Counted from the first letter of the stretch, positions 11,601 through 56,376 are shown. The stretch: DNA of 56,376 nt from a virus (IMGVR_UViG_3300031227_000051:1-56376), one strand, 5' to 3'. Notes: generated by a model not told the origin, from the sequence alone. Made by a program: numbers and translations.

Positions 11601-12125
11601 ATGAAAAAGTCAGCACGAACAAATCTTAGAAAAAGAAGAAAGGCATTATTTGTGGAAAGAATGGGAGGCAAATGTTCTATTTGCGGATATAATAAGTGTA
11701 TTAATTCATTAGTATTTCATCATATTAATAAAAATGATAAGAATTATGAACCAGCACAACTAATGAATTTTTCTATCAAAAAGATAGAAAATGAATTAAA
11801 AAAGTGTATTTTAATTTGTGCAAATTGTCATGGAGAATTGCATTCAGAAAAATATGATTATAAAATTAATGTTCAAAAATATATTAGAGAATGAGTTGAA
11901 ATTGAATGTAAATTTTGTCATACAAACTTTTCAACAATGAATAAGAATAGAGTATATTGTTCACAAAAATGTAGTGATTTGGCATTACTAAAAGTTCCAA
12001 ATAGACCTACAAAAGATGAATTAAAAGAACTAATTTCCAACAATACATGAGTTGATATTGGAAGAATGTTTAGTGTATCAGATAACGCAGTAAGAAAGTG
12101 AGCAAAAAAATACAAATTAATATAA
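11601..12125 (+). CDS. HNH homing endonuclease with C-terminal Zn finger and HTH (3 TGA=Trp)
   Basis: CSICG..FHH..CILICANCHGELH; C-terminal IGRMFSVSDNAVRK-W after TGA read-through. Confidence 0.85.
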
Positions 12126-12130
12126 AATAT

Positions 12131-12204
12131 GAGGCTGTATCCATCTGGGAAGGAGCTACCCTGTCACGGTAGTAAGGCGGGTTCAATTCCCGTCAGCCTC
12201 GCCA
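12131..12204 (+). tRNA. tRNA-Asp (GTC)
   Basis: cloverleaf, G73, CCA. Confidence 0.92.
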
Positions 12205-12219
12205 TTTTTAATTAAATTA

Positions 12220-12293
12220 GGAGAGGTGGTGTATTGGTCGCACATATGGTTGAAGCCCATAGAGTATCAGTTCAATTCTGGTCCTCTCCACCA
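12220..12293 (+). tRNA. tRNA-Phe (GAA)
   Basis: cloverleaf, loop TTGAAGC, CCA. Confidence 0.88.
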
Positions 12294-12330
12294 AATTAAA
12301 ATCTTGACAAAAATGATAAAAGAGGATTAT

Positions 12331-12561
12331 ATGATAACAGTTACTATAACAGAAAAAGATATGTCAAAACAAAATCGTATTGAACTACAGTATGAATGTA
12401 AAGATTGTCGTTTCAAGAAAAAATGTATAAAAGACCTTGGTGAAAATTATCAATCATTTATGGGATCTTATAATTGCAGAAGAACTTGGGCATGTAATTG
12501 TCAAGATAAAAAAAGAAGTTTTCTAAAAAGTTTTCTAAAAATATTTAGAAAAATAATGTAG
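12331..12561 (+). CDS. Cys-rich small protein
   Basis: GAGGA RBS before ATG 12331. Confidence 0.55.
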   Translation: MITVTITEKDMSKQNRIELQYECKDCRFKKKCIKDLGENYQSFMGSYNCRRTWACNCQDKKRSFLKSFLKIFRKIM

Positions 12562-12643
12562 GGGTATAGCCAAATTGGTAAGGCTCTAGTCTGATACGCT
12601 GGGAAAACACCGTCTCTGAGTTCGATCCTCAGTGCCCCTACCA
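12560..12643 (+). tRNA. tRNA-Ile (GAT) with a 13-nt variable region
   Basis: cloverleaf, loop CTGATAC, CCA. Confidence 0.85.
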
Positions 12644-12654
12644 AAAAATTTAAG

Positions 12655-13140
12655 AATAGGCTATCGGGCTGAGGCGTTGGTTTACGAAAGAAGACCGAAA
12701 GTTTTAGTCCGTTCGTCATCATATTAAAAGAAGAAAAGTAGTGATTAATGAAAGTCACCAATAAATATTCGGCTGAAAAAGATAGTCACTTTTAGTCCAA
12801 TAAGTTATATAGTGATTGAACAATGGTAATACTATCTTATCTATACTGCTTTTTATTAAAAACAAAGAAGATATCGTTATAGAGGTAAGAAAGGTTCGCC
12901 AGCTATTTAATTTTACAAACCGGAAATTGTACGATTGAATATACCGTGGTAATGGTTTTGCAAACCGTCAAAGCTGGACGAGTTTTCTTTGTTTGCTTTT
13001 TTTTACAAAAAATTATGCTAACTAGATGGTGAGAAAGTCATAAAGTAGATGTTACTAATTAGTGGCGGTAACCATATCTAATTTAACAGACTATAGTGAT
13101 GAAAAATGGCGAGTTACCCGTCTATTCTGTTTAGTTAGTC
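12655..13140 (+). ncRNA. run of structured ncRNA candidates
   Basis: no ORF; closing stems AAACAAAGAA/TTCTTTGTTT (~12860-12995) and GCTAACTAGA/TTTAGTTAGT (~13017-13139). Confidence 0.4.
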
Positions 13141-13144
13141 TTTT

Positions 13145-13221
13145 GCTTCCTTAGCTCAATTTGGCAGAGTACCGGATTTGTAACCCGGAGGTTGTAGGTT
13201 CGAGGCCTACAGGAAGCACCA
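13145..13221 (+). tRNA. tRNA-Thr (TGT)
   Basis: cloverleaf, CCA. Confidence 0.9.
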
Positions 13222-13223
13222 TT

Positions 13224-13300
13224 GCCTCTTTAGCTCAATTTGGCAGAGCATCGGTTTCGTAAACCGGAGGTTATAAGTTCAATGCTTATAGGAGGCACCA
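13224..13300 (+). tRNA. tRNA-Thr (CGT)
   Basis: cloverleaf, CCA. Confidence 0.9.
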
Positions 13301-13309
13301 AAAATTGAT

Positions 13310-13388
13310 AGGGAGATGAACGGCAGGTTGAATAGTAGAGATGCATACTGAATTTCAGAAATAAAGTGGGTTCGAATCCGCTCTCCCT
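13310..13388 (+). ncRNA. degenerate tRNA-like sequence
   Basis: AGGGAGA/TCTCCCT and GGTTCGAATCC. Confidence 0.4.
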
Positions 13389-13774
13389 TCCCTAAAATTA
13401 TGGCGAGGCAACAAGATTGACTTTTAGTTTGAGTGATGCACTTAGAATCATTTCAGCTATTAGTGACGACATTGTAATCTTCACACTCATAAGTTCTTGT
13501 TCAGTGTGATCCTTGCGACCAAAGTTAAAGGTTCTGGGAGCGTGCCTAAAGAGAATGAATATCTCAGCTCTCTTCATTAAAATCTTGACAAGAAAATGAA
13601 AATAATTATTATAGTTTTTACATAGAGTGAAAAGAAACGAAAAAGTGTTGTAGTATACCTAGGATATGTTAAAGACTGACAGTACATATCGATCTATCTA
13701 ATTAGATAGATTTAACTACACTTAAAAAAGACCGTAACTAGTTTACGTCTCTGTCCACCATTTATTTAAATTAT

Positions 13775-13848
13775 GACTCTCTAGTGAAATGGTATCACGA
13801 ATGACTGTTAATCATTGATTTCAAGTTCAAATCTTGAGGGAGTCGCCA
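13775..13848 (+). tRNA. tRNA-Asn (GTT)
   Basis: cloverleaf, G73, CCA. Confidence 0.92.
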
Positions 13849-14270
13849 TAAATTAATCGAATAATAATGCTATATATAGTTTGTACGGTCGAGAATCTTT
13901 ATAACGTTATAGTGCCGTACCTTATGTACTTGTTTGCGTACGTCTTAAGCTCCGATACCAAATAAGTTGTAATAATGTAAATTATTGTGTATAAAGCATA
14001 GTCAACTATGTATAGTATTATTTTTAATTAAAGTTCTTGACAAAATATCGAGAATGATTATATTAGTAATATAGAGTGAAAGAAGAGAGTGAGAAAGTAA
14101 TAGTAAGTAAAAGCTATCGTACGTAAGCAGATAAAAAATCGCAGAGAAACTCAGGGTAGTCAATGTCTGCGTTGACATCTGGAAAGACAGACGTAAACCG
14201 GCACTTCTGCAGAGTGGGGCGATGTACCGGAAGCTTAACATTGAAGCCCGAAGTTAAGCACTTTATTATA

Positions 14271-14406
14271 AGGATAATAACAGCAAAAACAAAAATTCAG
14301 AAATCCGATGGCTTTATGTCGTGTAGGTTCGAGTCTTACTTGTTGATTCTATTTCAACAATGGTGGAATTGGTAGACACGTCGGAAACAATTTTAACATT
14401 ATCCTG
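14271..14406 (+). ncRNA. CAGCAAA-element copy 3 containing a circularly permuted tRNA-Leu-like domain
   Basis: order: TTCAGAAA-TCCGA, variable arm, T arm, TTGTTGA-loop-TCAACAA, Leu-type D arm, TCGGA; closed by GGATAAT/ATTATCC-TG. Confidence 0.85.
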
Positions 14407-14412
14407 TTTTAT

Positions 14413-14488
14413 ACGGGTGTAGCTCAATTGGAAGAGTCCCGGTCTTATATGCCGGTGGTCATGGGTTCGAGCCCCGTCACCCGTACCA
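14413..14488 (+). tRNA. tRNA-Ile (TAT)
   Basis: cloverleaf, loop CTTATAT, A73, CCA. Confidence 0.88.
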
Positions 14489-14509
14489 ATTTTATAAAAG
14501 GAAGTATTT

Positions 14510-14740
14510 ATGACAAAAGATGAATATATCAAAAAGGTAGAAGATTACTGCGAGGCATACGCTAATGCTAAATTATTTGTAAAAGAAGTAAATGATTATA
14601 ATGACGAAAGAGACGAAGAAGGAAGTTATCATGATTATATTCTTTCAATGTCAGCGAAAGATGAAATGACAGAACGTAAAGAAGATTTAATATCATTTTT
14701 ATATTCAAGTACGTATGAAGATGTAGAGATAAAAAAGTAA
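14510..14740 (+). CDS. acidic hypothetical protein
   Basis: AAGGA RBS. Confidence 0.65.
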   Translation: MTKDEYIKKVEDYCEAYANAKLFVKEVNDYNDERDEEGSYHDYILSMSAKDEMTERKEDLISFLYSSTYEDVEIKK

Positions 14741-14759
14741 TAAGAATAATGAGCATATA

Positions 14760-14810
14760 AGAACACATACAGCAAATTAAAATAGTCATGAAAACTAAAA
14801 ACGTGTTCTG
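14760..14810 (+). ncRNA. CAGCAAA-element copy 4 (stem-loop TAGT-CATGAAA-ACTA)
   Basis: AGAACAC-ATACAGCAAA...GTGTTCTG. Confidence 0.75.
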
Positions 14811-14818
14811 ACTTATAT

Positions 14819-14895
14819 GGCGTCGGTAGCTTAACTGGTAAAGCACAAGATTGTGGCTCTTGAAGATACAAGTTCGATTCTTGCTCGTCGCCCCA
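14819..14895 (+). tRNA. tRNA-His (GTG)
   Basis: encoded G-1:C73, CCA. Confidence 0.9.
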
Positions 14896-14911
14896 TTTTA
14901 TAAATATATAT

Positions 14912-14987
14912 GCCTCTATAGTGTAACTGAACAGCACATTAGACTTCTAATCTTATAGTGAGGGTTTGAATCCTTCTAGAGGCGCCA
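14912..14987 (+). tRNA. tRNA-Arg (TCT)
   Basis: cloverleaf, CCA. Confidence 0.9.
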
Positions 14988-14993
14988 AAATTA

Positions 14994-15130
14994 AGAACAT
15001 TTACAGCAAACCAAAAAGTTCGGAAAAACAGATTGAGTAACATCAATTATTTGCAGGTTATAGTCCTGTCGTCATAGTCTGGGGCGAAGTTAATACAGAC
15101 TTTAAACTAATAAACAAACAAAGTGTTCTG
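14994..15130 (+). ncRNA. CAGCAAA-element copy 5 with a degenerate permuted class II (Ser-like) tRNA domain
   Basis: TCGGAAA loop, GATTGA/TCAATT arm, GCAGG/CCTGT T arm, closed acceptor, D-like arm; AGAACATTT/AAAGTGTTCT-G. Confidence 0.65.
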
Positions 15131-15141
15131 TTATTTTATAA

Positions 15142-15224
15142 TGCGGGATGATGAAATGGTATCATGGGTCTGGCTTTAGTAGAGTCGGGCTAGTTTGGAG
15201 ATTCAATTTCTCTTCCCGCATCCA
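15142..15224 (+). ncRNA. tRNA-like RNA with an ~11-bp anticodon arm and 3-nt loop
   Basis: TGCGGGA/TCCCGCA-T-CCA, D and T arms; GGTCTGGCTTT-AGT-AGAGTCGGGCT. Confidence 0.7.
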
Positions 15225-15310
15225 CTTTTATTAAAGAATTCCTTGACAAATTACTGAGAATAATTATAGTAGTTTTATAGAGTGAAATTTAGTGAAAAAG
15301 AAATTTATAT

Positions 15311-15383
15311 GCTCTCATCGTCTAAATGGTTAGGATATAAGACCTTCAATCTTATGATGCGAATTCGAGTTTCGCTGAGAACA
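15311..15383 (+). tRNA. tRNA-Glu (TTC), C33, no CCA
   Basis: Glu-type D arm; TAAGA-CCTTCAA-TCTTA. Confidence 0.8.
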
Positions 15384-15468
15384 CTTCCCAAACAAAATGA
15401 ATAATTAATCTTGAACTTTTTTTATTTCTAATATATATTAATATAGAGAAGAATAAGGAGAATACATA

Positions 15469-16347
15469 ATGAAAGTTCATTTTGTCTATAAGATTACAAA
15501 CACTATAAATAATAAAATTTATATTGGCAAACATTCAACAAATAATATTGAAGATAATTATATGGGCTCTGGTAAAATATTAATAAGAGCAATTAAAAAA
15601 TATGGTATTGACAAATTCAAAAAAGAAATTTTATATGAGTTTGACACACCTGATAAAGCATTTTCAATGGAAGCTAAAATCGTTAATAAAGAATTTATTA
15701 AAAGAAAAGATACGTATAATATTAAACTTGGTGGCGAAGGCGGATGAGATTATTTTAAAGGTACAGTTACAGTTAAAGACAAAAATGGAAATACATCCAG
15801 GGTATCCAAAAATGATTCCAGATATTTATCTGGTGAGTTATTTTCAATTGCAAAAGGCACTGTATCAGTCAAGGACAAGAACAACAAACACTATCGAATT
15901 GCATTAAATAATCATAAATACCTATCTGGAGAATTAGTTCATAACAAAACTGATTTAGTAACTGTTAGAGATAACGATAATAATACATTTAGCGTATCAG
16001 TAAATGACCCAAGATATTTGTCGGGAGAATTAGTTTTTCATTTAACTAATATTGCTACGGTTAAGGATAAAGATGATAATATATTTTGTGTGCCAGTAAA
16101 TGACCCAAGATATTTGTCGGGAGAGTTGGTTGGTATTTCAAAGGGAAAACATCACAGCGAAAAAACAAAGAAAAAAATATCAAAATCAGCAATGGGCAAA
16201 CATGTTGGCGAACTTAATTCTCAATATGGAACGTATTGAATTTACAATGAAAAATTAAAAGAAAGTAAAAAAATAACAAAAAAAGAACTGCAAAATTGAA
16301 TTGACAGAGGTTGAATTAAAGGCAGAAAAATAAATTGAGTTTTATAG
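15469..16347 (+). CDS. GIY-YIG homing endonuclease with four ~31-aa repeats and NUMOD3 (5 TGA=Trp)
   Basis: [28 protein letters not shown]; repeats VKD..ND.RYLSGEL; [10 protein letters not shown]; ends G-W-IKGR. Confidence 0.9.
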
Positions 16348-16414
16348 CTCATATAATTAAAGATATGAGCGACAAACATATTAGTTGTTCATACGTGAGC
16401 GACAAACTTTTTAT

Positions 16415-16504
16415 GGGCATGTACGCAAATTGGCAAAGCGGCTGGACTTAAAATCCAGTGTGGGTTTACCCCTAATAAGAGTTCGATTCTCTTCATGCCT
16501 ACCA
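16415..16504 (+). tRNA. tRNA-Leu (TAA)
   Basis: class II cloverleaf, CCA. Confidence 0.9.
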
Positions 16505-16644
16505 TAAATCTATCCCTCTTTATGGTTTTCGGTTCGACACCAAATAGGGACATCAAAAAAAATAAACATTGGGGATAACAATGATGAAAGCATATGAATT
16601 TGAAAATGGCATGACAATTAAAGAATTAAAAGAAATATTTACTT

Positions 16645-16718
16645 GCGGCATTAGGTTAGTGGTAGACCATCGGATTTTCTCTCCGATAGCAACAGTTCAA
16701 TTCTGTTATGCCGTACCA
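16645..16718 (+). tRNA. tRNA-Glu (TTC), loop TTTTCTC
   Basis: cloverleaf, CCA. Confidence 0.82.
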
Positions 16719-16759
16719 AAAATAAGTACACTTCGACTGGTACCTATAAGTAAGTGTAT

Positions 16760-16899
16760 AGCAAGTGGTCTGGGTTTGACCAAGTTGCAAAGTAAATGTA
16801 TGTTTTGCAAGACGTATCATTTAACATTTGTGGAAACTAAAATCCTGACAGGTGATATCAGCCTGTACTAAAGCGGTTGGATTCCGTAGCTTGCGACCA
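16760..16899 (+). ncRNA. ~140-nt giant tRNA-like RNA
   Basis: GCAAGT/GCTTGC-GACCA, GGTC/GACC D arm, very long central arm with TTGCAA apex, extra arm, GCGG/CCGT T arm. Confidence 0.6.
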
Positions 16900-16921
16900 A
16901 AATAATAAGTGAGGTTTTAAA

Positions 16922-17473
16922 ATGAAAAAGATTATATTTGAAGAAAAAGAATGTTATATTGCGTATAAAGTATTGCATGAAGATTTATCTAATTTTAAAG
17001 AAAATTATACTTACGAAACTGAAAATTGGTACTCAACTTTAGAAGTTGATATGACCGACGAATCCTGTTCTTATGGTTGTAATTTATTCAAAACAATTGA
17101 AGCAAGTTTTATTTTCATGAATCATGGTAAAATCTTTAAATGTTATGTTCCAATAAAAAACAATAAAATAAAATTTATTAATAATGAAAGTAAATTTAGA
17201 TGTCTTAAATTTTATTTAACTAATGAAGAAGTATTTTTAGATTATATTAAAAATTATGAAAAGTATTGGAATGAATTAACTGAAGACCAGAAAGAACGTA
17301 TTTGCATACATAATATCAATTTCAATTATGAAAAGTATTGGAATGAATTAACAGAATATCAGAAAGATTGTGTTTGTTCAAATAATATCAATTTCAATTA
17401 TGAAAAGTATTGGAATGAATTAACTGAATATCAGAAGAATTATGCTTGTAGAAGTACAGTAATAAAAGGTTAA
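16922..17473 (+). CDS. hypothetical protein with three 23-aa tandem repeats (NYEKYWNELTE.QK)
   Basis: 69-nt repeats ~17252-17445. Confidence 0.75.
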   Translation: MKKIIFEEKECYIAYKVLHEDLSNFKENYTYETENWYSTLEVDMTDESCSYGCNLFKTIEASFIFMNHGKIFKCYVPIKNNKIKFINNESKFRCLKFYLTNEEVFLDYIKNYEKYWNELTEDQKERICIHNINFNYEKYWNELTEYQKDCVCSNNINFNYEKYWNELTEYQKNYACRSTVIKG

Positions 17474-17541
17474 TAACTTGACAAAATTATAGAAAACGTA
17501 TAAGAAAGTTGCCATTTTTAAAAATTTAAAAAGGAGATATT

Positions 17542-17757
17542 ATGAAAAACTTTACATTAACAATGAAAGAAGTTGAAAAACAAATTGAAGATATTAAAAA
17601 AATGAAATATGATACTGAAGGTGTTCATGTATTTGAGGACGATTTACATCATGATTTTATTTTACATATTGCAAATAACGGTACGAAAGAACAGAGAGAA
17701 ATGGCAAAAAGAATATTAACTACAGATGATATTATATCTGAAAGATGGTATTCATAA
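17542..17757 (+). CDS. hypothetical protein
   Basis: AAGGAG RBS. Confidence 0.65.
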   Translation: MKNFTLTMKEVEKQIEDIKKMKYDTEGVHVFEDDLHHDFILHIANNGTKEQREMAKRILTTDDIISERWYS

Positions 17758-17794
17758 CAGCATACAACTGAAAGTATTAAAAATAAATTTATAT

Positions 17795-17889
17795 GAGTGA
17801 GTATGCGAATTGGAATAGCAGGTGGACTTAAAATCCATTGGAGGATGAACCTCGTTAAATTAAGAGTTCGAATCTCTTCTCACCTACCA
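17795..17889 (+). tRNA. tRNA-Leu (TAA)
   Basis: class II cloverleaf, imperfect acceptor, CCA. Confidence 0.82.
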
Positions 17890-17895
17890 TTTTAT

Positions 17896-17928
17896 GCCCG
17901 ATTAGCTCAATTTGGGAGAGCGTCATTG
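17896..17928 (+). pseudogene. 5' fragment of a tRNA (Val-like), truncated upstream of the endonuclease
   Basis: GCCCGAT-TA-GCTC-AATTTGGGA-GAGC-G with no 3' half. Confidence 0.6.
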
Positions 17929-18039
17929 ATAATATATAACTAAAATTCGTGTTAATTAAAAATGCAAAACTCATATAGAAATATACTAAATTTTTTAAGT
18001 TCGACTATATTTATTACTAAATAAGGAGAATGTAAAAAA

Positions 18040-18732
18040 ATGAAATGTAAATATTGCGGTAAAGAAATAATCAATCCAAAATTTTGTAACAATAGTTGTG
18101 CGGCAAAGTATAATAATAAGAAACGTGGCAAAAGAAGTGATATAACAAAAAAGAAAATTAGTGAAAGTTTAACTGGAAGAATTTCAGGGAAGAAAAAAGA
18201 ATATGTAGAGAAAATATGCCCAGTATGTAAGATAAAATTTTATGTCAATAAGAATAATAAACAAAAAATGAAAAGAATATATTGCTCAAAAAATTGCAAA
18301 AATAAATGCCCCATACTTAAAGAGAAATATTCAGAAATGGCAAAAAAAAGATGTAGTACGTTAGAAGAAAAAAATAGAATGAGAGAAATTGGGAGAAAAG
18401 GTGGCTTTGGTACAAAAGGATATTTAAAATCAGGCATAAGATATGAGTCACTATTTGAAAAAAAATGCTTCATTTGATTAGAAGAAAACAATATTAAATT
18501 TATTCCACACAAAAGATTGCCAAATAGTGCAAAAGTTACTGACATATACATTTCTAATAAAAATTTGTGAATTGAACTGGATGGAATAGATAGACGTAAA
18601 AAGCAAAAATTTCTAAAAGATAATATCAAAAGATGAGAAGAAAAAATTAAATTATATGAACAAAATGAACTTAATTATAAAATATTTTATAATACAAACG
18701 AATTAATAGATTTTATTGGGGAATTATTTTAA
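18040..18732 (+). CDS. Zn-finger/NUMOD + Vsr/PD-(D/E)xK-like homing endonuclease (3 TGA=Trp)
   Basis: CKYCG, CPVC, CSKNC; TDIYISNKNL-W-IELDG after read-through; stop overlaps tRNA-Val. Confidence 0.8.
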
Positions 18733-18788
18733 CGGTAGAATAATTGGCTTACATCCAATTGGCAAAAGTTCGATTCTTTTATTCCCTA
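18718..18788 (+). tRNA. tRNA-Val (TAC), no CCA
   Basis: ATTGG-CTTACAT-CCAAT, T arm; followed by theta ribozyme. Confidence 0.8.
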
Positions 18789-18854
18789 ACTTAACGATTG
18801 AGCAACCTCTACGTGGTGTTAAGTAGAAACAGATAATGCTGGCAAATAGTTCAA
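18789..18854 (+). ncRNA. theta (HDV-like) ribozyme
   Basis: P1 ACTTAAC/GTTAAGT starts right after N73; P1.1 CT/AG covaries with CC/GG of the 10047 copy. Confidence 0.85.
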
Positions 18855-18877
18855 AATAAAAACAATAAGGTACTAAC

Positions 18878-19258
18878 ATGTCAAAAAAATTAGGAAGAAT
18901 TTATCGAGAAGAAGATGAAACAATGAATCATGATGTTCAACGACAATATTATGATATTTTAAAGCTTTGCAAATTTATTTCTAAAGAAGATACATGATTT
19001 ATCGAAGGAACAGAGGTTAAATTTGTTGGTAATGATATATTTATTTTATGAGGTGAATATAATAATGAAGATGTATTATTTAATGACAATCTATCATTAT
19101 TTGAGGGACTTACAAATTTTAATTGTAAAGAAAACGAATCGGCTCATATAGACCAAGAAAGCTGTTCATTTGAGGAATTTAAAATTATGTATAAAGATAT
19201 GAATATATCAGAAATGTCATTAAAAGATTTTAAATCCTTGACAAAATATCAGAAGTAA
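18878..19258 (+). CDS. hypothetical protein (2 TGA=Trp)
   Basis: AAGGT RBS; 126 aa open under code 4. Confidence 0.7.
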
Positions 19259-19297
19259 TTATTATAGTTTTATAGAGTGAAAAAAGAATTTAATGTA

Positions 19298-19450
19298 AAG
19301 ACTTACATCTTTAATGTTATTCGTAATGACCTTATGTGAAAGCATTCCGATGAATGAGTTATTAGAAACCCGGAGCATTAAAGAGGTTATTGAGTGGGTG
19401 GAGCTTTATAAGCGTAGAAGCTCGCAAGTGTAATTCCGGTCTGTAAGTCT
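19298..19450 (+). ncRNA. structured ncRNA candidate
   Basis: AGACTTACA/TGTAAGTCT closing stem after a promoter. Confidence 0.45.
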
Positions 19451-19460
19451 CTATTTATAT

Positions 19461-19538
19461 GCAGGTGTAGCAAATTATTGGTTTTTGCAACGGACTTTTA
19501 ATCCGCCAATGCAGGTTCGATTCCTGTCACCTGCACCA
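19461..19538 (+). tRNA. tRNA-Lys (TTT)
   Basis: cloverleaf, CCA. Confidence 0.85.
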
Positions 19539-19668
19539 AAAAATTATATGAGATCATCAGGAACGATGTTATATACGAGATATTAGTAAATTTATGAACG
19601 TAAGCATAAATGAAAACATCTCTAATAAGGAGGATTCAATTCCCTTCGTCTCGTCAAAATTCATATAA

Positions 19669-19814
19669 GTGTGAGGTAAGTTAAACTGGTAAAAAGCACT
19701 CTTACGAGAGTCGAAGTCCGATGGTCGGTATGGTATCTCAAGTACCAATAACGCCGAAACAGGTTCCTGACAGCAGGAGTAAAGCTAATTGATCGGATTT
19801 AACTTACCTCACAC
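19669..19814 (+). ncRNA. multibranch ncRNA closed by a perfect 17-bp helix
   Basis: GTGTGAGGTAAGTTAAA/TTTAACTTACCTCACAC; inner TCCGAT/ATCGGA, TGGTA/TACCA, TCCTG/CAGGA. Confidence 0.65.
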
Positions 19815-19843
19815 AATAAAATAAAAAATAATAGAGGTATAAT

Positions 19844-20086
19844 ATGTCAAAAAAAGTTTATCGTTACGTTTTTTACAAACTTCAGCCGGTTTTCGCAATT
19901 TCTTCTGCAGAATCTAAAAATGATTTATCGATGAATTTCAGTAAAAATGGTTTTGATAAGGGCGGTCATTTTGTTGAATTAAATGATGAAAGAGAGTGTA
20001 TAAGAAATAAAATTCCTATCGAAACAATTGATAGACTAAATGAATGTCATAGTATATCATTTATTGAAGAAATTAAAGATGATTAA
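19844..20086 (+). CDS. hypothetical protein
   Basis: GAGGT RBS. Confidence 0.6.
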   Translation: MSKKVYRYVFYKLQPVFAISSAESKNDLSMNFSKNGFDKGGHFVELNDERECIRNKIPIETIDRLNECHSISFIEEIKDD

Positions 20087-20097
20087 AGAATTATATT

Positions 20098-20174
20098 GAC
20101 TCAGTGACCGAATGGTTTAAGGTAACGGATTGCAAACCCGTTTATTGAGAGTTCGAATCTCTCCTGAGTCTCCA
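20098..20174 (+). tRNA. tRNA-Cys (GCA)
   Basis: cloverleaf, U73, CCA. Confidence 0.92.
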
Positions 20175-20470
20175 TTTTATAAAAGTAATTAAAAATGATT
20201 TTAATTGTTACATGGCTCAACTACAGCACACGAACAATGTTCGTGGTACATTATAGACACTGTTGTAAGGTTAGAAACTTACTGTAATAATTAATGATCG
20301 AACCACTGATCAATACGTTGACCAAGTATGAAATTCATAGAAACTATAAGAGACTCGATCAGTCATTATTTTTAAATTATATTGACAGAAAAGCAATAAA
20401 GAAGTATATTGTCTTTATAAGTGATAGAGAGTTATTAAATTAAAAATAATAAAAGACAATAGGAGAAGAT

Positions 20471-22360
20471 ATGAGTTTAAGCTTTAAAGAAAGGGAATAT
20501 TTAAGACACAAGAAGTTATATTATTCAGGTACACCAGAAATTAGTGACTCAGAATTTGATGCATTAGAAGATGATATTAAATTAACAATTCCAAATAGTT
20601 TCGTATTGTTACAGGTTGGGTCAGAATTAGAAAAAAGTTCTGAATATTTAGTTAAGCACAACAAAGAAATGTTATCATTGAATAAGACAAGAGAAACTAA
20701 AGATATATATTCTTGGGCAAAAGGTGAGGAATTAGTTATAAGCATTAAAGAGGATGGTACAGCAACTAGTTTAATTTATGATGATACTAATAACTTCGTA
20801 ATAGCAAAAACAAGAGGTGACGGTATTTTTGGTAAGAATATAACTAATAACTTTCAACATGTAGTTTTCCCAAGACATATATCTCATTCTGAGAAATCAA
20901 TCGAAGTTCGAGGCGAATCAGTGATTACACAAGACAGTTTTGATATGCTTACTAAAGAATGTAAGAAAAGAGGGATAGCCGAACCTAAGTCTATCAGAAA
21001 TATAGTTGCAGGATTATTAAGTCCAACAAGAGAACACGATATGGATTTAGCTAAATATGTAGATTTTGTAGCTTATGAAGTTATTGGTGTTGATGTAGAA
21101 ACCGAAATGGAAATGTTTAGACTATTGGACTCCTGGGGATTCCAAATTCCATTAACGATCAAAGTAACAGATACAGTAGAAGATGAAGTTAGAAGATACG
21201 CAGATTACAAAGATACACTTCCTCACTTGTCAGATGGATTGGTTTTTACGATTAATAACAGAAAAGCTCAGATTGGTCGTGGGAGTACAGGTCATCACTT
21301 CAAGGGTAAGATGGCTTTTAAATTAGAAAGTGAAACAGGAATTACTACAGTAATAGATATTATAGAAAAAACGAATAGAACTGGAAAAGTTAGTTTTGTT
21401 GCAATTGTAGAACCTATATTTTTATCTGGTGGAAATATTACAAAAGTTACTCTTCACAATGCTTCTCAGGTAAAAGCTCATCAGTTAGCAGTTGGAGATA
21501 AAATTAGAGTAACTCGCTCAGGAGAAGTTATTCCAAAGTTATTGAATGTAGTTGAACATAATGGTCAATTTAGTTTACCAACACACTGTAATAGTTGCGG
21601 AAGCAAATTGAAATGGTCAGACACTAATGCAGATTTAATGTGTAACAATAGTGATTGTGACAGTAGTAATATTACAAAAATTATTCACTGGATTAAAGCA
21701 GTAGGTATCGAAAATGTTGGTGCGAAAACAGTTCAAAGATTATTCGATGAAAATTTGATCGAAAACATTTTGGACTTATACTTATTAAAATATGGTGACA
21801 TTAGTTGCTTAAGAGGATTTGGTTCTCGCAAAGAAGAAATCATAATTGAGAATATCAATAAGAGTAAAAATATCACGATAGACAAAGTAATAATTGGCAT
21901 GGGATTTCACGGTATTGGCAAAACATTTACCAAAGAATTGACAAAGATATTTCCCAATATCGAAGCAATGAGAATGGCAACTGTAAATGATTTGTTAAAC
22001 ATTAAAGGTATTGGTGATGTAACAGCAAATGATTTTTTCAATAATTTCCCAAAAATTAATAAAATGTATTCTGATTTAATAAAGTTAGGATTTAATATTA
22101 CAGAAGGAGAAAAACAAATGATAACCTCTCTTAACATTGAAGATTTAAACTTTGTAATTACTGGTAAACTATCGCAAAGTAGAGCAGTAATCAAAAAGTT
22201 AATAGAAGAAAATGGTGGTAAGGTATCAGGTAGTATTTCAAAGTCCACTGACTATCTTGTTGCGGGAGAAAAGTGCGGAGCAAAACTGCAAAAAGCTAAA
22301 GATAATGATGTTACAATTATTACTGAAACTGAATTGTTAGATATGCTAAATGTAAACTAA
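20471..22360 (+). CDS. ligA: NAD-dependent DNA ligase
   Basis: YY..ISDSEFD, MLSL, KEDG, TRGDG, EVRGE, DGLV, OB fold, C4 Zn finger, HhH, BRCT. Confidence 0.95.
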   Translation: MSLSFKEREYLRHKKLYYSGTPEISDSEFDALEDDIKLTIPNSFVLLQVGSELEKSSEYLVKHNKEMLSLNKTRETKDIYSWAKGEELVISIKEDGTATSLIYDDTNNFVIAKTRGDGIFGKNITNNFQHVVFPRHISHSEKSIEVRGESVITQDSFDMLTKECKKRGIAEPKSIRNIVAGLLSPTREHDMDLAKYVDFVAYEVIGVDVETEMEMFRLLDSWGFQIPLTIKVTDTVEDEVRRYADYKDTLPHLSDGLVFTINNRKAQIGRGSTGHHFKGKMAFKLESETGITTVIDIIEKTNRTGKVSFVAIVEPIFLSGGNITKVTLHNASQVKAHQLAVGDKIRVTRSGEVIPKLLNVVEHNGQFSLPTHCNSCGSKLKWSDTNADLMCNNSDCDSSNITKIIHWIKAVGIENVGAKTVQRLFDENLIENILDLYLLKYGDISCLRGFGSRKEEIIIENINKSKNITIDKVIIGMGFHGIGKTFTKELTKIFPNIEAMRMATVNDLLNIKGIGDVTANDFFNNFPKINKMYSDLIKLGFNITEGEKQMITSLNIEDLNFVITGKLSQSRAVIKKLIEENGGKVSGSISKSTDYLVAGEKCGAKLQKAKDNDVTIITETELLDMLNVN

Positions 22361-22599
22361 GGAGATAAAATGAGTAAACATATAAATCTTTATAAACTCT
22401 ATCACGAAATAACGGGAGAAATGATTCTTGATTGGTCAACTAAAGAAGAAATACTGTTAAAATACGAAAACAAGAGGATTAATTGAAGAAGATTTATCAA
22501 TGAATACTTTTGACCCTCATGATTTTTGAGATGGAATTCATGAAATAGAAGAAGCTCCACATAATAAAAAAGAAAAGAAAAGAAATAATAGATAATAAA

Positions 22600-22719
22600 A
22601 GGATACATACAGCAAATCAAATTAGGACTTGTAATCCCCATTTGTTGGTTCGAATCCAGCTCTTAATGTGTTAAAGCGTTAGGATTGCTTAATTGGTAAA
22701 GCAGGTAAAACGTATCCTG
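22600..22719 (+). ncRNA. CAGCAAA-element copy 6 containing a circularly permuted tRNA (loop CTTGTAA, Thr-like)
   Basis: GGA-CTTGTAA-TCC, T arm GTTGG-TTCGAAT-CCAGC, closed acceptor TCTTAATG/CGTTAGGA, D arm GCTT-AATTGGTA-AAGC; GGATAC/GTATCC-TG. Confidence 0.85.
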
Positions 22720-22733
22720 TATTATCTATACTT

Positions 22734-22819
22734 GGCTCTCTAGGAGAATTGGAATATCCAGCGTCCTTAGAAGTCGTGCCTTAACAGGTGTCTCGGTTCG
22801 AGTCCGAGGAGAGCTACCA
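22734..22819 (+). tRNA. tRNA-Leu (TAG)
   Basis: class II cloverleaf, CCA. Confidence 0.88.
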
Positions 22820-22851
22820 AATATATAATCAATAAAAGTTTTAGTTTATAA

Positions 22852-22928
22852 GGTCGTCTAGCCCAACTGGAAGAGGCGCCAGCTTCAAACACTGTACAGT
22901 CTGAGTTCGAATCTCAGGATGACTACCA
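22852..22928 (+). tRNA. tRNA-Leu (CAA) with short variable loop (anticodon register somewhat ambiguous)
   Basis: CCAGC-TTCAAAC-ACTGT, A73, CCA. Confidence 0.7.
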
Positions 22929-23007
22929 AAAACAGAATCTCGTTTTATCAATGAATTCTCGGCTCGACATCGAGCAGAAACGTCAAATTAATGCAAAAGG
23001 AGTTGTG

Positions 23008-23802
23008 ATGAAGTTTACGGAAATAAATGATTTAAATTTAAAAGAATGAAAAGAAATTCGAGAAGAGCTATATATAACAACAAACGCTCTTTGATATACT
23101 GGACACGATGATTACAACTTGTTTAAGATACCAAAAAGAGATTTCTTACCTGAAAATTCAAAAACCTTTCATGGATTATTTATTCCAGAAATACCATATC
23201 AATTCATATCAAGATTTACAAAAGCCGGTGAAACAGTATGAGACCCGTTTTCAGGAAGCGGAACAACGCACAAGGTTGCTAAAATACTTGATAGAGAGTG
23301 CATTTCAACTGATTTAACGCCAACGGAAGATTTTATTGAATATGGTGACGCATTAACATATAAACCTCAAAAAAACGTACAAATGATATTTTTACATCCT
23401 CCTTATCATGATATCGTAAAGTACTCTGACAAAAGAGACGACATATCTAATTGCAAAGATGTTAAAAATTTTTTAATTAACTTTAAAAAGATAGTTGACA
23501 ATGTTACTCAGTATCTAGATGATTCAAGAATTTTAATATTAGTCTGTGGTAATATATACAAAAATAGTGAAGAAGTTTCTCTTGGTATATATTGCAAAGA
23601 AATTGTTAGAAATGCAGGATTTAGACTGAAGAGTCATATCATTAAAGATTATGGATGAACAAAAGGAGCCAAGAATAATAATTTAATGTATTACAGAAGA
23701 TTAAAGGGTGGATATAATAATTTTTATGGAGATAATATTTTTATATTACAAAAGAAAAAGTCATTCAATATTATTGATTTAAATGATATTTATAATAGTT
23801 AA
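23008..23802 (+). CDS. N4/N6 DNA methyltransferase (4 TGA=Trp)
   Basis: V-W-DPFSGSGTT SAM motif and HPPY catalytic motif join in one frame only under code 4. Confidence 0.88.
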
Positions 23803-23809
23803 AATACAT

Positions 23810-23895
23810 GCCTCTGTTGGCAAAGTGGTGAAGCTAGCAGGCTAAGAACCTGCCCCTTTTTAGGGTTGAGAGTTCGACACTCTCCAGAGGCACCA
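23810..23895 (+). tRNA. tRNA-Leu (AAG)
   Basis: class II cloverleaf, loop CTAAGAA, CCA. Confidence 0.88.
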
Positions 23896-23919
23896 TTTTT
23901 AATTAAAGGAAGTTAATAA

Positions 23920-24156
23920 ATGATTAAAATAACAGTAGAATTAATACCATTTGGAATTGGCAAACCGAGAAAAATTGGTGAGGCCAAAATCTGAAATGAT
24001 GCAACTGGGTCTCAAACAACAGGAAATTATGGGTATAAGTTGTTTGGTAAAAAGAATAAATTAATGAAAGAAGGAACAGTAAAAAATTTTAAAAGAAAAC
24101 AAAAACATGTCTGAGAATTATTATATTTATCACTAAAAGATAAGTATGAGAGATAA
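23920..24156 (+). CDS. hypothetical protein (2 TGA=Trp)
   Basis: AAGGA RBS; MIKITVELIPFG...HV-W-ELL. Confidence 0.7.
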
Positions 24157-24208
24157 AAATCTTGACAAAATAAGTTAGATAAACATTATTGATTATGTAA
24201 TGCAACTT

Positions 24209-24298
24209 GCTCCGATGGCGGAATCAGGCAGACGCTGCGGCCTTAAAAGCCGCTTGGGTAATATCCCAGTATGAGTTCAAGTCTCATTCGGAGCACCA
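24209..24298 (+). tRNA. tRNA-Leu (TAA)
   Basis: class II cloverleaf, CCA. Confidence 0.92.
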
Positions 24299-24379
24299 AA
24301 TATTTAAAAATAAAAAATAGGAGAATGAAGATGAAAAGAGAAAATTTCATTACTAAGTGGAACGAAAGACGAGAACGTT

Positions 24380-24583: not shown

Positions 24584-24588
24584 CATAT

Positions 24589-24662: not shown

Positions 24663-24682
24663 AAATTATAAGTGAGAAAATT

Positions 24683-24832: not shown

Positions 24833-24849
24833 TAAAATATGAACTAACT

Positions 24850-24923: not shown

Positions 24924-24931
24924 TTTAATTT

Positions 24932-33007: not shown

Positions 33008-33008
33008 T

Positions 33009-48578: not shown

Positions 48579-48653
48579 CGCAGTATAGTTCAGTGGTAGA
48601 ACAATGAATTCTAAACTCATGTGTCGTAGGTTCGATTCCTACTACTGCGACCA
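48579..48653 (+). tRNA. amber suppressor tRNA (CTA)
   Basis: CGCAGTA/TACTGCG, A73, CCA; ATGAA-TTCTAAA-CTCAT. Confidence 0.9.
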
Positions 48654-52813: not shown

Positions 52814-53179
52814 TTGATTTATATTGTAATTATATTACACTTTTTGTCAGACTGGGTTTTTCAGCCTAGAAATGTTGCGAAACGAAAATCAAGCTCATTA
52901 AAGTGAATGGCAAAGCATTTAATTGTAGTACATCTCATGTTTACTGTATTGGCTATGTACTTACATATTTCTCACTATTGAGTTATTTTAAATACGATTT
53001 CTCATTTTATCATTGACAAAAATATATGGACTTTATATAAGAAGATAAGAGTTGGTGATGATTATCCGAAAGAGTATCTTGAAAAAAATAAGTATGCAGA
53101 GGATTATTGATATTTTTTCACAATAGCAATTGACCAGATGATACATTTATCAATATTAATGTTCATTTTTGTAAGGTAG
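52814..53179 (+). CDS. DUF3307-like membrane protein (3 TGA=Trp)
   Basis: GGAGG RBS, TTG start; HFLSDW.FQ, HFIID, DQMIH. Confidence 0.8.
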
Positions 53180-53452: not shown

Positions 53453-53548
53453 TGAACGCCCGTACAACCATGGTGAAAAACTAGAAGGTAAAATATGGAT
53501 AAGGTTTATGTTGGAGTTAAATGCTTTAATACAAAAAAGGAGTAAGAA

Positions 53549-53884
53549 ATGAAAAAGGTTGTGATAATTACATTAATGTTTTTAATGTTTGGTATGATGT
53601 ATGCAGAAGGCGGAATGGAAATGAAAAAAAGTGATTGGATTCACATGCTTGCACCAGGAATCGGTGATGTTGTAGGCGAGCAAGCGTTACTAACTTTGGG
53701 TGTTAACAAAGATGTTGCTGAGTTTGGAACTCTTGCATTGGGATGTACATGCGTTATATTGCATGAATATTATATCGGCGTTGGAACGAAAGAAGATATT
53801 GAATTAGGACTTATGTCATTGGCTACTGGTTGGATTTTTAATAGAGCCATAAATGCAATATTTAGAAAAGATAATAAGAAATAA
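53549..53884 (+). CDS. exported or membrane protein
   Basis: signal-peptide-like N-terminus. Confidence 0.65.
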   Translation: MKKVVIITLMFLMFGMMYAEGGMEMKKSDWIHMLAPGIGDVVGEQALLTLGVNKDVAEFGTLALGCTCVILHEYYIGVGTKEDIELGLMSLATGWIFNRAINAIFRKDNKK

Positions 53885-53939
53885 TTTGACAAAATTATCT
53901 ATCAACAATACACTGACAAGGTAAATTAAAAAAGGAGGT

Positions 53940-54215
53940 ATGCATTTAGTTGTAAAGGCAGATGTTAATGATGGAGATTATATTAACGAAACAACCCCAA
54001 TAAGCGATCAGAAAGAGCTTGATGAAATAATTGAGATAATCAAAGAGATACCGAAAACTGATCATAATTATGAAGATTGGGAATGGTCCGAACTTAAAGA
54101 AAATTTCGAGGAGTATATGCCTTCTCTGAATAATGAGAAGATTCATACAATAACGTCAATAGATATTAATGTTATAGATATTAATGTTATTGAGCATATA
54201 AAAAGTTTACTTTAG
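53940..54215 (+). CDS. acidic hypothetical protein
   Basis: GGAGG RBS; 15-nt tandem duplication (IDINV x2). Confidence 0.65.
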   Translation: MHLVVKADVNDGDYINETTPISDQKELDEIIEIIKEIPKTDHNYEDWEWSELKENFEEYMPSLNNEKIHTITSIDINVIDINVIEHIKSLL

Positions 54216-54291
54216 CAAAAAATACTTGACAAAATATCACAACAAGAATATATTAACAAAGTAATTTAATAAACAAAGTAAGGAGGAAATA

Positions 54292-54555
54292 ATGAAATGG
54301 AATAAAGAATCAGAAACAAATTGGACAAAAGAGTTTAGTTTTGGTGATGAATTTATTGAAATTAAAATTAATCATTACAAGACAATGAAGAATGGTTTTT
54401 ATTTATCGCTCTCTTATGAGGGCAAGAGAAAACAATATCTTTCGACATCTAAAGGTTTGAAATCATTTGATGAGGCCGAAAGTTTAGTGATACCTTCTAT
54501 TAAAAGTCTTATTTCTGAATTGCAAGTGATATTGAATGATTTAAAAAACGAGTAG
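54292..54555 (+). CDS. hypothetical protein
   Basis: GGAGG RBS. Confidence 0.65.
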   Translation: MKWNKESETNWTKEFSFGDEFIEIKINHYKTMKNGFYLSLSYEGKRKQYLSTSKGLKSFDEAESLVIPSIKSLISELQVILNDLKNE

Positions 54556-54565
54556 GAATATTACA

Positions 54566-54900
54566 CTGTCTTGATGATCTAACGCTCATAATTTTCAAGA
54601 TATAAGTTACAGGTTGTAACGCTATTAAAAACGATGATGGGCTATTTGTAGGGCATCAAAACCTTGGTGAATGACTTGGCCAATGGGGTTAATAATAAAA
54701 TTAAAATTAAGATCAAATCCTAAGACAAGTCAATTAGGTAGTAAATAGAGCAAGATAACTGAAGCATTACACAATGCTGGTTTGTAAGACTGAGGGTTTA
54801 TTAACTCATGTGTATCATCTTTAAATTATATGAGAAAAAAGATGATGAAATTAGGGTTTGAGAGTGCGGGAACCTCAATCAGTTTTTTTGCTCTATTTAT
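54566..54900. ncRNA. two tandem structured ncRNA candidates upstream of rtcB
   Basis: TGTCTT.ATGATCT/AGATCA..AAGACA (54567-54728); TAAATAGAGCAA/TTGCTCTATTTA (54742-54899). Confidence 0.45.
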
Positions 54901-54973
54901 TTTTTTATATAAAGTATTTGACAAAATCAGAGAAAATAATATTATAGTAACATAAATAGAAAAGGGAGAGAAA

Positions 54974-55564
54974 ATGTTTAAAATTAAAGGCAAGTATACT
55001 ACGGCAACAGTACATATAGATAATATTGACGAAACTGCAATAGCGCAAATAACTAAAATGGTCAATAACTCATATTTTACGAATCCAATACACATTATGC
55101 CTGATACACATGCGGGGAAGGGCAGTGTTATTGGTTTTACTATGCCATTAAAAGGATTAGAAATAATACCTAACATAATTGGCGTTGATGTAAATTGCGG
55201 TATGGTTTCCATAAGATTAGGTAATATGTCAGATAAGAAAAAAGATAAATTCAATGCAAAAAACGAAAAGTTTATGGCAAAATTAGATACAAGAATAAGA
55301 GAGTTAATTCCTATGGGATTTAACATACACGAAGCTAACGACTTAAACTCAAAAATAGAACCTGAAAAGATTTTAAAGAAGATAGCTTGTGATGCTCAAC
55401 TCGAAGCGATTAAGTTCGCACATAAATTTTATAATGAATTTGGAACAAAAATAATCGACAAAATGCCTGACTATTCATCTGATGAATATTTCAAGACAAT
55501 TATGAAACGTACAGAAATAGATAACTCACGTTTTTTCAATAGCCTAGGAAGTCTTGGCGGTGGT
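54974..55564 (+). CDS. rtcB: RtcB RNA ligase, exon 1
   Basis: MPDTHAG.G.VIG, IGVDVNCG, SLGSLGGG; homology stops just before NH. Confidence 0.92.
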
Positions 55565-56376
55565 AGAATGATTGCTTCCGGGCCAAGACAATAATATAAA
55601 TATACCGAAATTTCTTCTGATTGACTTGGAATCCCAATTACTGGGAGACAGGGCGCAAGGGTAATGCTAGCGTGAGAGACTAAGTGAAGAAACATCCAAA
55701 AGATGAAGCGATAGTCCGAACTTAGGTATAAGTAATTTTAAAAACCTAAGAGATAAGCAGAAATGACTTATCCTGCTCTTTATAATCGAATAGTTAGTGG
55801 TAATTGTGGGAACTTTAGGAGAAGAAAATCACTATATTTTTTAGATTTCTAATACTTATATATAAAAGTTAGGAGATTAAAAAATAATGGAATGTTTAAT
55901 TTGTGGGCGTAAATGTAAAACACAGAGGGGTTTAAGTAATCACGTCAGTTCAAAACATGGCATGAATAGAAAAGAATATAGCGATAAATTTAATCTTAAT
56001 TTAGTAAGATATTGTAAAACTTGTGGCAAAATTCTTTCAAAAACATGTTTAGGAGATTATTGTAATGTTCACAGAAAACGAAGTGGGAAAGATAACCCTT
56101 TTTTCGGAAAATCTCATTCGAGAAAGACAAAATTGCTTATAAAAGAAAAATGTGCAATTGCATCAAAAAAACTATGAGAACAAGAATCTTATCGTAAAAG
56201 TGTTATAGATGGTGCAACTGGGAAAAAAAGAAGTCAAAAATTTAAAGATACCCAAAGGCTCAATGCGCTCAAACAATTTGAAAACAAAGCACAAAGAAAA
56301 CTCCGAAGTGATATTATGAAAGAAAACTGAAGAAATGGCAAAGTTGCTTGTCAACCTCATGTTTCTTTTAATAAAT
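55565..56376 (+). mobile_element. group I intron in rtcB (3' end outside window)
   Basis: 5' exon ends in U; GAGACTA..ATAGTCC P7 signature; P3 TTTCTTC/GAAGAAA; P9-type hairpins. Confidence 0.85.
55887..56376 (+). CDS. intron-encoded putative homing endonuclease (C2H2 finger, NUMOD3; 2 TGA=Trp; runs off window)
   Basis: CLICG..HVSSKH, NPFFGKSHS.KTK; open to window end under code 4. Confidence 0.75.

Follow-up and report, generated by a model that had tools for sequence, protein, structure and literature searches.

The 56,376-nucleotide (nt) viral sequence IMGVR_UViG_3300031227_000051:1-56376, hereafter referred to as the window, is a 56.4-kb single-contig assembly of about 30% GC, with a GC skew that is positive along its whole length and a + strand that holds all of the genes curated here. 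It belongs to a phage whose genes fall into two coding regimes: about four-fifths never use the codon TGA, and the others, among them every recognisable homing endonuclease, carry TGA in frame, in several families precisely where their relatives have tryptophan. The phage DNA is present in 22 sequencing runs from 22 studies, every one labelled as a salt lake metagenome; at least half of the window words occur in 6 of these runs, three of which contain 92-99% and one of which may be the source, and no RNA dataset is among the 22. Searches of Pfam and PHROGs named pncB, a metallophosphatase, an NAD-ligase, ClpX, a Thg1-like enzyme, Dam, a pyrimidine-dimer glycosylase, UDG, Rnl2, a histidine kinase, YqeY and an interrupted RtcB, as well as HNH and GIY-YIG endonucleases, an N6/N4 methyltransferase and a DUF3307 membrane protein.

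For the counts of TGA and TGG, + strand open reading frames (ORFs) were read with TAA and TAG as the sole stops, and 94 genes were curated from the resulting list by removing shadow ORFs and ORFs over transfer RNA (tRNA) or transfer-messenger RNA (tmRNA) genes. The removed ORFs include 12226, 12816, 13417, 14163, 14308, 16569, 25331, 42023, 43928, 44370, 46278 and 52502, and several of the removed ORFs would contribute TGAs were they real. Six starts were shifted downstream, five of them with the loss of upstream TGAs (4754 to 4787, 5289 to 5430, 16877 to 16922, 33321 to 33366 and 46852 to 46948) and the sixth (27077 to 27134) with no TGA lost.

The recognisable homing endonucleases comprise an HNH gene, two free-standing GIY-YIG genes and an ORF inserted in RtcB, and all of their tryptophan codons are TGA. 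The HNH gene (11601..12125, +; 3 TGA/0 TGG) follows a tRNA-Tyr gene and the promoter copy at 11123; 9 of the 11 PHROG families that it matches are HNH families (best E=1.6e-20), and its alignment contains invariant Cys and His columns, with no match in Pfam. GIY-YIG/NUMOD3 copies 1 (15469..16347, +) and 2 (25825..26697, +) each contain 5 TGA/0 TGG, and copy 1 follows the promoter at 15243 and a tRNA-Glu gene. Both copies match the Pfam families GIY-YIG, SegE_GIY-YIG and NUMOD3 (PF01541 and PF19835, of catalytic/SegE type, and PF07460), with scores partly near or below the curated cut-offs, and there are 4,897 homologues at E<=1e-5. Tandem 96-nt (32-residue) repeats lie within both genes (15811-16145 and 26167-26501), and the relative P0002 lacks one unit. 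The fourth gene is associated with RtcB, whose first part (54974..55594, +) covers only positions 1-153 of the 426-position Pfam RtcB profile and stops after a GGG motif, ending in GGGRMIASGPRQ followed by the stop codon. After some 290 nt of non-coding sequence there follows an ORF with Pfam NUMOD3 and I-TevI_ZnF zinc-finger matches (55887..56375, +; 2 TGA/0 TGG) that runs off the window. The interruption of RtcB looks like an intron-type insertion, judging from this arrangement; no Rfam intron model matched around the ORF at E<=5, and the window ends before the 3′ part is reached.

TGA is also the only tryptophan codon in several other genes. The ORF at 18040..18732 (+; 3 TGA/0 TGG), hereafter ORF 18040, encodes a zinc-finger protein that the initial annotation had labelled Vsr-like; this label found no support, as the ORF has no Pfam family, a weak PHROG match, no relative in the PDB and a predicted fold with a pLDDT of 43, and any nuclease role is putative. 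It contains a D...ELDG-like stretch that may resemble the Vsr-like/PD-(D/E)XK family. The neighbouring ORF 18878 (18878..19258, +; 2 TGA/0 TGG) matched no family in Pfam or PHROGs. An N6/N4 DNA methyltransferase (22951/23008-23802, +; Pfam N6_N4_Mtase E=4.7e-16) contains 4 TGA/0 TGG, and a small phrog_8231 protein (23920..24156, +; E=2.7e-8) contains 2 TGA/0 TGG. TGA and TGG occur together in the DUF3307 membrane protein (52814..53179, +; 3 TGA/2 TGG; Pfam DUF3307, phrog_2470) and among the MYVKIKTW paralogues (5430..6507, +; repeat family D20, found at 5424, 5676 and 6202). A further gene (7361..7666, +) ends in a TGA-TAA tandem at 7661 and stops under either code. Three 72-nt repeats at 17252-17467 lie inside the gene 16922-17473.

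TGG alone is used in the genes for pncB (1840-3027), LigA, an NAD-dependent DNA ligase (20471..22360), ClpX (28786-30102), Thg1 (31491-32231), Dam (33961-34809), DenV (35587-36048), UDG (36049-36705) and Rnl2 (40482-41516), all on the + strand and assigned with Pfam. Our counts reproduce those made by hand in the initial annotation, both in the HNH gene, the two GIY-YIG genes, ORF 18040, the methyltransferase and the RtcB-insertion ORF, which sum to 22 TGA/0 TGG, and in pncB (7 TGG), LigA (4), Thg1 (4), Rnl2 (4), Dam (3) and DenV (6), which have no in-frame TGA. That annotation had assigned the pattern to 11601-56376; most of the genes that it named lie there, but pncB and some TGA-bearing non-nuclease genes lie upstream.

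Alignments with homologues indicate that UGA is read as tryptophan in this phage. When 28 GIY-YIG proteins are aligned, copy 2 has its five TGA sites at W93, W224, W257, W277 and W282, of which W257 is invariant (28/28), and the W277 and W282 columns contain W or Y. The protein database contains code-4 translations, and hence we added a check at the DNA level, in which 19 of 80 homologous loci in IMG/VR were aligned. The TGA codons stand opposite TGG in 18/19 loci at site 257, 19/19 at site 282 and 12/19 at site 224, and site 277 has TGG in 5 loci and aromatic residues in 12. Tryptophan is written as TGG in all 80 loci (24-50% GC), and the 0-2 in-frame TGAs per ORF found there are probably true stops read through by ORF extension. 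The HNH gene behaves similarly, with TGA at W98, W150 and W167, where W150 is tryptophan in at least 90% of the sequences and W167 in 21/21. In DUF3307, the TGA site W99 and the TGG sites W14 and W72 are invariant in 7/7 sequences. Methyltransferase homologues often have tryptophan at three of the four TGA sites, and they begin at query residues 20-28, which favours a start at 23008; furthermore, a 62%-identical database protein covers exactly the stretch between two TGA sites of this gene, as would be expected of a relative with TGA there that had been called under code 11. Within the window itself, the three-copy MYVKIKTW repeat has its tryptophan written once as TGG and twice as TGA. In-frame TGA thus matches tryptophan in the relatives of four families (GIY-YIG, HNH, DUF3307 and the methyltransferase) and among paralogues.

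The TGA-bearing genes are intact, and TGA is never a clear stop in the window. Their frames run without TAA or TAG for up to 292 codons, and that of ORF 18040 extends over 230 codons in code 4. Identity between the two GIY-YIG copies is 64%, with a proportion of synonymous differences (pS) of 0.56, a proportion of non-synonymous differences (pN) of 0.22 and a non-synonymous to synonymous divergence ratio (dN/dS) of 0.25 over 290 codons, and a synonymous divergence (dS) of about 1. Contigs from four other runs show 0 differences from the window over most of the HNH gene, ORF 18040 and the methyltransferase and over parts of the GIY-YIG genes, and the other runs nearly match the window throughout; among the 40 differences listed, of 91, none affects a TGA codon in any gene named here, and the difference at 14345 lies in a TGA of the removed shadow ORF 14308-14565. 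Under code 11, 93 + strand ORFs of at least 60 amino acids (aa) end in TAA (68), TAG (15) or TGA (10). Eight of the ten TGA-ending ORFs are fragments of read-through genes, one is the TGA-TAA tandem and one (48776) continues for 36 codons. For comparison, TGA ends 59/361 mechanically called ORFs of at least 120 aa (16%) in 31 low-GC IMG/VR loci, and the probability of zero TGA stops in 93 genes at a share of 0.2 is P=9.7e-10. The small ORF 22370-22564 is ambiguous, with four TGAs in its last 26 codons, where a related contig diverges.

The division between the two regimes is sharp. In the curated set, 73/94 genes are TGA-free (154 TGG, 0 TGA) and compatible with the standard code, and 21 genes contain TGA (49 TGA, 21 TGG), one of them counted solely for its TGA-TAA tandem. 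Among the 56 genes with at least two tryptophan codons, TGA is used exclusively in 9 and TGG in 38, and 9 are mixed; when the codon labels were shuffled, 31 mixed genes resulted on average, with a minimum of 22, and 0/20,000 shuffles came down to 9. Genes resembling homing endonuclease genes are all-TGA in 5/5 cases, compared with 6/71 of the others (p=2.5e-5; the five include the unverified ORF 18040).

The initial annotation had named AT content and gene origin as factors that, acting alone, would undo its interpretation. AT content cannot account for the TGG-only class. Among AAR, GAR, CAR, TTR and AGR codons, the TGA-free genes have 77% ending in A and the TGA-bearing genes 82%, and the TGA-free class has 0 TGA among its 138-154 tryptophan codons (0.23^138 = 8e-89). 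The strong signal is the total avoidance of TGA in 73 genes. By contrast, AT content can account for most of the TGA-only class once TGA is free to serve as a tryptophan codon: the TGA-bearing genes together have TGA at 49/70 tryptophan codons, against a share of 0.82 expected from the A-bias, with no excess. The all-TGA state of the five endonuclease-like genes likewise needs no special selection, because their own A share is 0.864, at which P(18/18 TGA)=0.07. Gene origin alone is also very unlikely to explain the bias, as both GIY-YIG copies are all-TGA at a dS of about 1 and TGA stops are avoided throughout the window.

The split between the classes is non-random, as the initial annotation had claimed, but the dividing line is not DNA cutting, the property that it had proposed. 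No TGA is present in DenV, UDG, LigA, Dam or the phosphoesterase, and TGA occurs outside nucleases in DUF3307, phrog_8231, the MYVKIKTW paralogues and, as single codons, in the genes at 3800, 39465, 41516 and 42370. Its view that early functions stay readable by the host holds to the extent that most genes read the same under both codes.

The two classes are also interleaved along the DNA. A sigma70-like element occurs in about 21 copies, each consisting of TTGACA, a spacer of 16-17 nt and TATAGT or TATTAT, followed by ATAGAGTGAAA; the copy at 15243..15301 (+) is one example, with TATAGT. The initial annotation had proposed to set TGA use against promoter class; a single promoter type was seen, and the units that follow it mix TGA and TGG-only genes. 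The unit from 15243 contains GIY-YIG copy 1 (5/0), two TGG-only genes, ORF 18040 (3/0) and ORF 18878 (2/0), and that from 20382 contains LigA (0/4), the methyltransferase (4/0), phrog_8231 (2/0), one TGG-only gene and a GIY-YIG gene (5/0); these units are delimited by promoter copies. The segregation is thus per gene rather than per transcription unit, and any gate must therefore act at translation.

TGA-only genes are also interleaved in the tRNA array (8590..25741, +; ARAGORN, Rfam), which belongs to a set of 35 tRNA genes found with ARAGORN, to which Rfam adds a few. A tRNA-Trp(CCA) lies inside the array at 24589-24662. The best-scoring tRNA of the window is an amber suppressor tRNA(CUA) (48579..48653, +; ARAGORN, Rfam tRNA 67 bits, fold). 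Recoding of TAG was considered and rejected: TAG terminates at least 15 genes, often within the TAGGAG ribosome binding site of the next gene, and TAG read-through enters only neighbours that have their own starts. Four tRNA-like genes with aberrant anticodon arms head the array (8590-8665, 8736-8829, 9042-9107 and 9287-9359); one is without a stem, three have six-base loops (UAAAAG, CAAUCC and UGAUUA), none has a UCA anticodon, and the first two are each preceded by the strong promoter element, in identical copies (8530 and 8684). Elsewhere in the window, we found a tmRNA at 43683-44042 (Rfam 96 bits), a short tRNA/tmRNA-like element with a CCA end at 10916-10995 (31.8 bits, below the cut-off) and, between a promoter copy and tRNA-Tyr at 11287-11348, a match to the freshwater-1 RNA motif that comes near the threshold (65.2 bits, gathering 72). 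An HDV-like ribozyme candidate (18789-18856; 36.5 bits, gathering 44) abuts the 3′ end of tRNA-Val, the position beside phage tRNAs in which theta ribozymes are described in the available part of a preprint (10.1101/2023.06.13.544163).

The searches turned up no relative genome of the phage. LigA found 0 relatives in IMG/VR and one match among metagenome contigs, a 1955-bp contig (L081) of 94% identity, and against deposited phages the top protein identities of LigA and Rnl2 were 32% and 35%. The sequence downstream of LigA is wholly different in L081 (1750-1955) and the window (22370-22564), marking a variable insertion spot. A DUF3307 match in IMG/VR was rejected as a relative, being a standard-code jumbo phage of 53% GC. 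No more than four genes are shared with the window in any of the 80 GIY-YIG loci or in L081.

We consider it the probable explanation, held with modest confidence, that the window derives from a TGA-to-Trp recoded (code-4-type) phage in which most genes are bilingual and a minority, made up of selfish and accessory genes, can be read only in code 4. The assignment of TGA to tryptophan, the two regimes and the interleaving of the classes are established by the comparisons above; we infer a host on the standard code, a switch of code during infection and the timing of expression that this switch would impose. The bilingual genes, about four-fifths of the total, use TGA neither as tryptophan nor as a stop and would yield the same protein under the standard code and code 4; repair, ligase and tRNA-repair functions and others of an early type are among them. 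The other genes appear to use TGA about like any A-ending codon. Every recognisable homing endonuclease belongs to this code-4-only set, as do a single DNA methyltransferase, one membrane protein and a dozen ORFs of small size, and in the endonucleases the use of TGA is exclusive. In a standard-code host, selection may have kept TGG in the genes needed before UGA is decoded, and AT-biased mutation may have moved the tryptophan codons of selfish and accessory genes, free of that constraint, to TGA. The endonucleases and the methylase could then not be made until UGA is decoded, despite sharing sigma70-type units with bilingual genes. A standard-code host together with a phage-driven switch predicts the observed pattern of 0/154 TGA in 73 genes and no clear TGA stop. 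Moreover, the two all-TGA GIY-YIG copies at a dS of about 1, the occasional TGAs in ordinary genes and the window-wide avoidance of TGA stops suggest that decoding of UGA as tryptophan is old and genome-wide, with no recent import.

This explanation has precedents. The available text of Borges et al. (bioRxiv 10.1101/2021.08.26.457843) describes phages of standard-code hosts that read TGA as tryptophan, with 26-71% of genes recoded, and proposes that standard-code genes are expressed first and recoded genes after a phage-driven switch. Like those phages, the present one has TGA opposite tryptophan, partial recoding and a gene set compatible with the standard code; unlike them, it comes from salt-lake metagenomes rather than gut microbiomes and has no detectable relative, and the late genes, which bear most of the recoding there, are absent from this window. 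Dual coding is also described for crAss-like phages in the available part of the Mgcod preprint (10.1101/2022.06.29.495998), where two coding regimes likewise share one phage genome; there, however, they form contiguous blocks, whereas here they alternate gene by gene within promoter units.

Several observations weigh against this explanation. No tRNA(UCA) was detected in the window with ARAGORN, with Rfam at gathering and E-value thresholds or in a scan for hairpins with a UCA loop, and no release factor 1 (RF1) or tryptophanyl-tRNA synthetase (TrpRS) was detected among the scanned ORFs, the many small ORFs outside the scan being judged too short for either. The only suppressor, tRNA(CUA), reads TAG, a codon used as a stop here. 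These three phage-borne components of UGA decoding, none of which appears in this partial contig, are frequent but not universal in recoded phages: a Sup-TCA tRNA occurs in 35% of code-4 genomes according to the available text of Borges et al. (10.1101/2021.08.26.457843) and in 11/73 according to Cook et al. The sole promoter type seen precedes both classes and gives no independent evidence of timing. Pfam and PHROGs recognised no structural or lysis genes in the window, the late classes that this explanation predicts to be rich in TGA as well. No relative genome was found in IMG/VR, metagenome contigs or deposited phages, and ClpX gave no hint of the host, matching GTDB genomes of Clostridia, Proteobacteria and many other phyla at 51-58% identity. 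Finally, the nine all-TGA genes, a set picked post hoc, together exceed their A-bias (P=0.007), which leaves room for selection for TGA.

Such selection is the core of the most serious alternative, in which TGA would have been selected in the nuclease genes so that DNA-cutting proteins wait for the code switch, with the genetic code acting as a timer or safety catch. We regard this as possible but doubtful. The idea is not new: according to the available text of Borges et al. (10.1101/2021.08.26.457843), in code-4 Agate phages the endonuclease of a group I intron, located within an early gene, favours TGA over TGG (p=1.3e-3), and in-frame stops are suggested to hold it back until late; the timer of the initial annotation is already contained in that suggestion. 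The likeness extends to the present phage, in which a TGA-written homing endonuclease is also placed in an early gene, and the shared preference of unrelated gut phages speaks for selection. Here, by contrast, it involves every recognisable endonuclease (the HNH gene, the two free-standing GIY-YIG genes and the RtcB ORF) plus one unverified ORF, and it is absolute, at 18/18 tryptophan codons, but in one genome rather than a clade. In the literature searched, we found no report of a genome that writes the tryptophans of all its homing endonucleases in TGA alone.

A delay of this kind has a parallel in T4, where, in the available part of Edgell et al. [quoted passage not shown] T4, however, relies on RNA hairpins that mask the ribosome binding site, late promoters and autorepression, not on the genetic code. 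In support of a selected lock, endonuclease-like genes are all-TGA in 5/5 cases against 6/71 of the others, the nine all-TGA genes go beyond their own A-bias, and the endonucleases share their sigma70-type units with bilingual genes, where any block would need to be translational. On the other hand, the endonucleases taken by themselves are not significant (P=0.07), the four tryptophan sites shared by the GIY-YIG copies would all be TGA in both copies in about 30% of cases at that bias, TGA also occurs in non-nuclease genes and is missing from the DNA-acting DenV and UDG, and the single promoter type offers no evidence of timing. A further-reaching form, which we think unlikely, is that TGA-only coding is a selected safety catch that arose independently in the gut Agate and salt-lake lineages, with UGA in the present phage maybe also decoded without a canonical tRNA(UCA), for example through a tRNA-Trp(CCA) that has been altered or edited, or through some tRNA-like RNA of non-canonical type.

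A host that itself reads UGA as tryptophan, or a phage that moves between hosts with differing codes, is also unlikely; no switch would then take place during infection. In that case the bilingual genes would be explained by a dual host range or by adjustment to the phage tRNA-Trp(CCA), which is indeed present, and TGA genes would work only in a code-4 host. In favour of this, no UGA-decoding machinery was found in the window. Against this, 0/154 TGA in 73 genes at 30% GC is an absolute avoidance that goes far past codon tuning. The window has strong Shine-Dalgarno sites and TTGACA/TATAAT promoters, and a phage with these features, 35 tRNAs and a presumably large genome is, to our knowledge, unlike known mollicute phages. 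Cultured phages nevertheless lend this alternative some weight, as 22/27 of their code-4 calls are Mycoplasma or Spiroplasma viruses (Cook et al.). The available text of a further study (PMC10746230) predicts TGA-free, code-compatible phages for both recoded and standard-code bacteria; the phages that it predicts for Gracilibacteria and Absconditabacteria, compatible with code 11, have no in-frame TGA and a second stop close behind TGA ends. The bilingual class and the TGA-TAA tandem at 7661 resemble these features, whereas those phages are TGA-free throughout and their hosts read UGA as glycine, and here one-fifth of the genes need UGA as tryptophan. UGA is likewise reported, in the available text, to be read as glycine and not tryptophan in the recoded lineages of the candidate phyla radiation.

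Gene origin alone, with the endonucleases and their neighbours recently imported from a code-4 donor pool and retaining its codon habit, is very unlikely. The TGA genes are slightly AT-richer (GC at third codon positions 0.20 versus 0.24) and form cassettes interleaved among tRNA genes, directly after them, and the sequence downstream of LigA differs in its 94%-identical relative. However, the GIY-YIG copies, 64% identical and both all-TGA at a dS of about 1, speak for old residence under code 4; the 80 homologous IMG/VR loci all use TGG; ordinary-looking genes hold single TGAs among TGGs; and the avoidance of TGA stops spans the whole window. That the TGA-laden ORFs are dead genes, with TGA a stop, is scarcely credible, since a code-11 reading does split them into pieces but they run for up to 292 codons without TAA or TAG, the GIY-YIG copies diverge at a dN/dS of 0.25, TGA falls exactly at conserved tryptophan sites in four families, and contigs identical to the window over these genes recur in four other runs.

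Two further features lie outside these questions. A nucleic-acid and tRNA repair set (Thg1-like enzyme, Rnl2, RtcB, LigA, DenV and UDG) is found at 28786-41516 and 54974-55594, accompanied by ClpX, a HisKA_2 histidine kinase, YqeY and pncB, which suggests counter-measures against host tRNA-targeting defences. In addition, small proteins with a (Y)YDIYGN motif are encoded at 33659, 44105, 44320, 44439 and 44679 and also at about 46.9 kb and about 53.2 kb, and the family is repeated in the DNA too (repeat family D18).

Collectively, our findings carry partial TGA-to-Trp recoding beyond gut phages, into a salt-lake lineage unrelated to them, and they show why code-11 annotation fragments genes of this kind. 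The window provides an unusually clean natural case, in which bilingual genes alternate one by one with code-4-only genes, and the latter class takes in all of the recognisable homing endonucleases. This arrangement makes it testable whether recoded selfish nucleases represent a selected lock or the passive outcome of relaxed constraint under AT pressure. If the safety catch proves true, the genetic code itself would serve to contain homing endonucleases.

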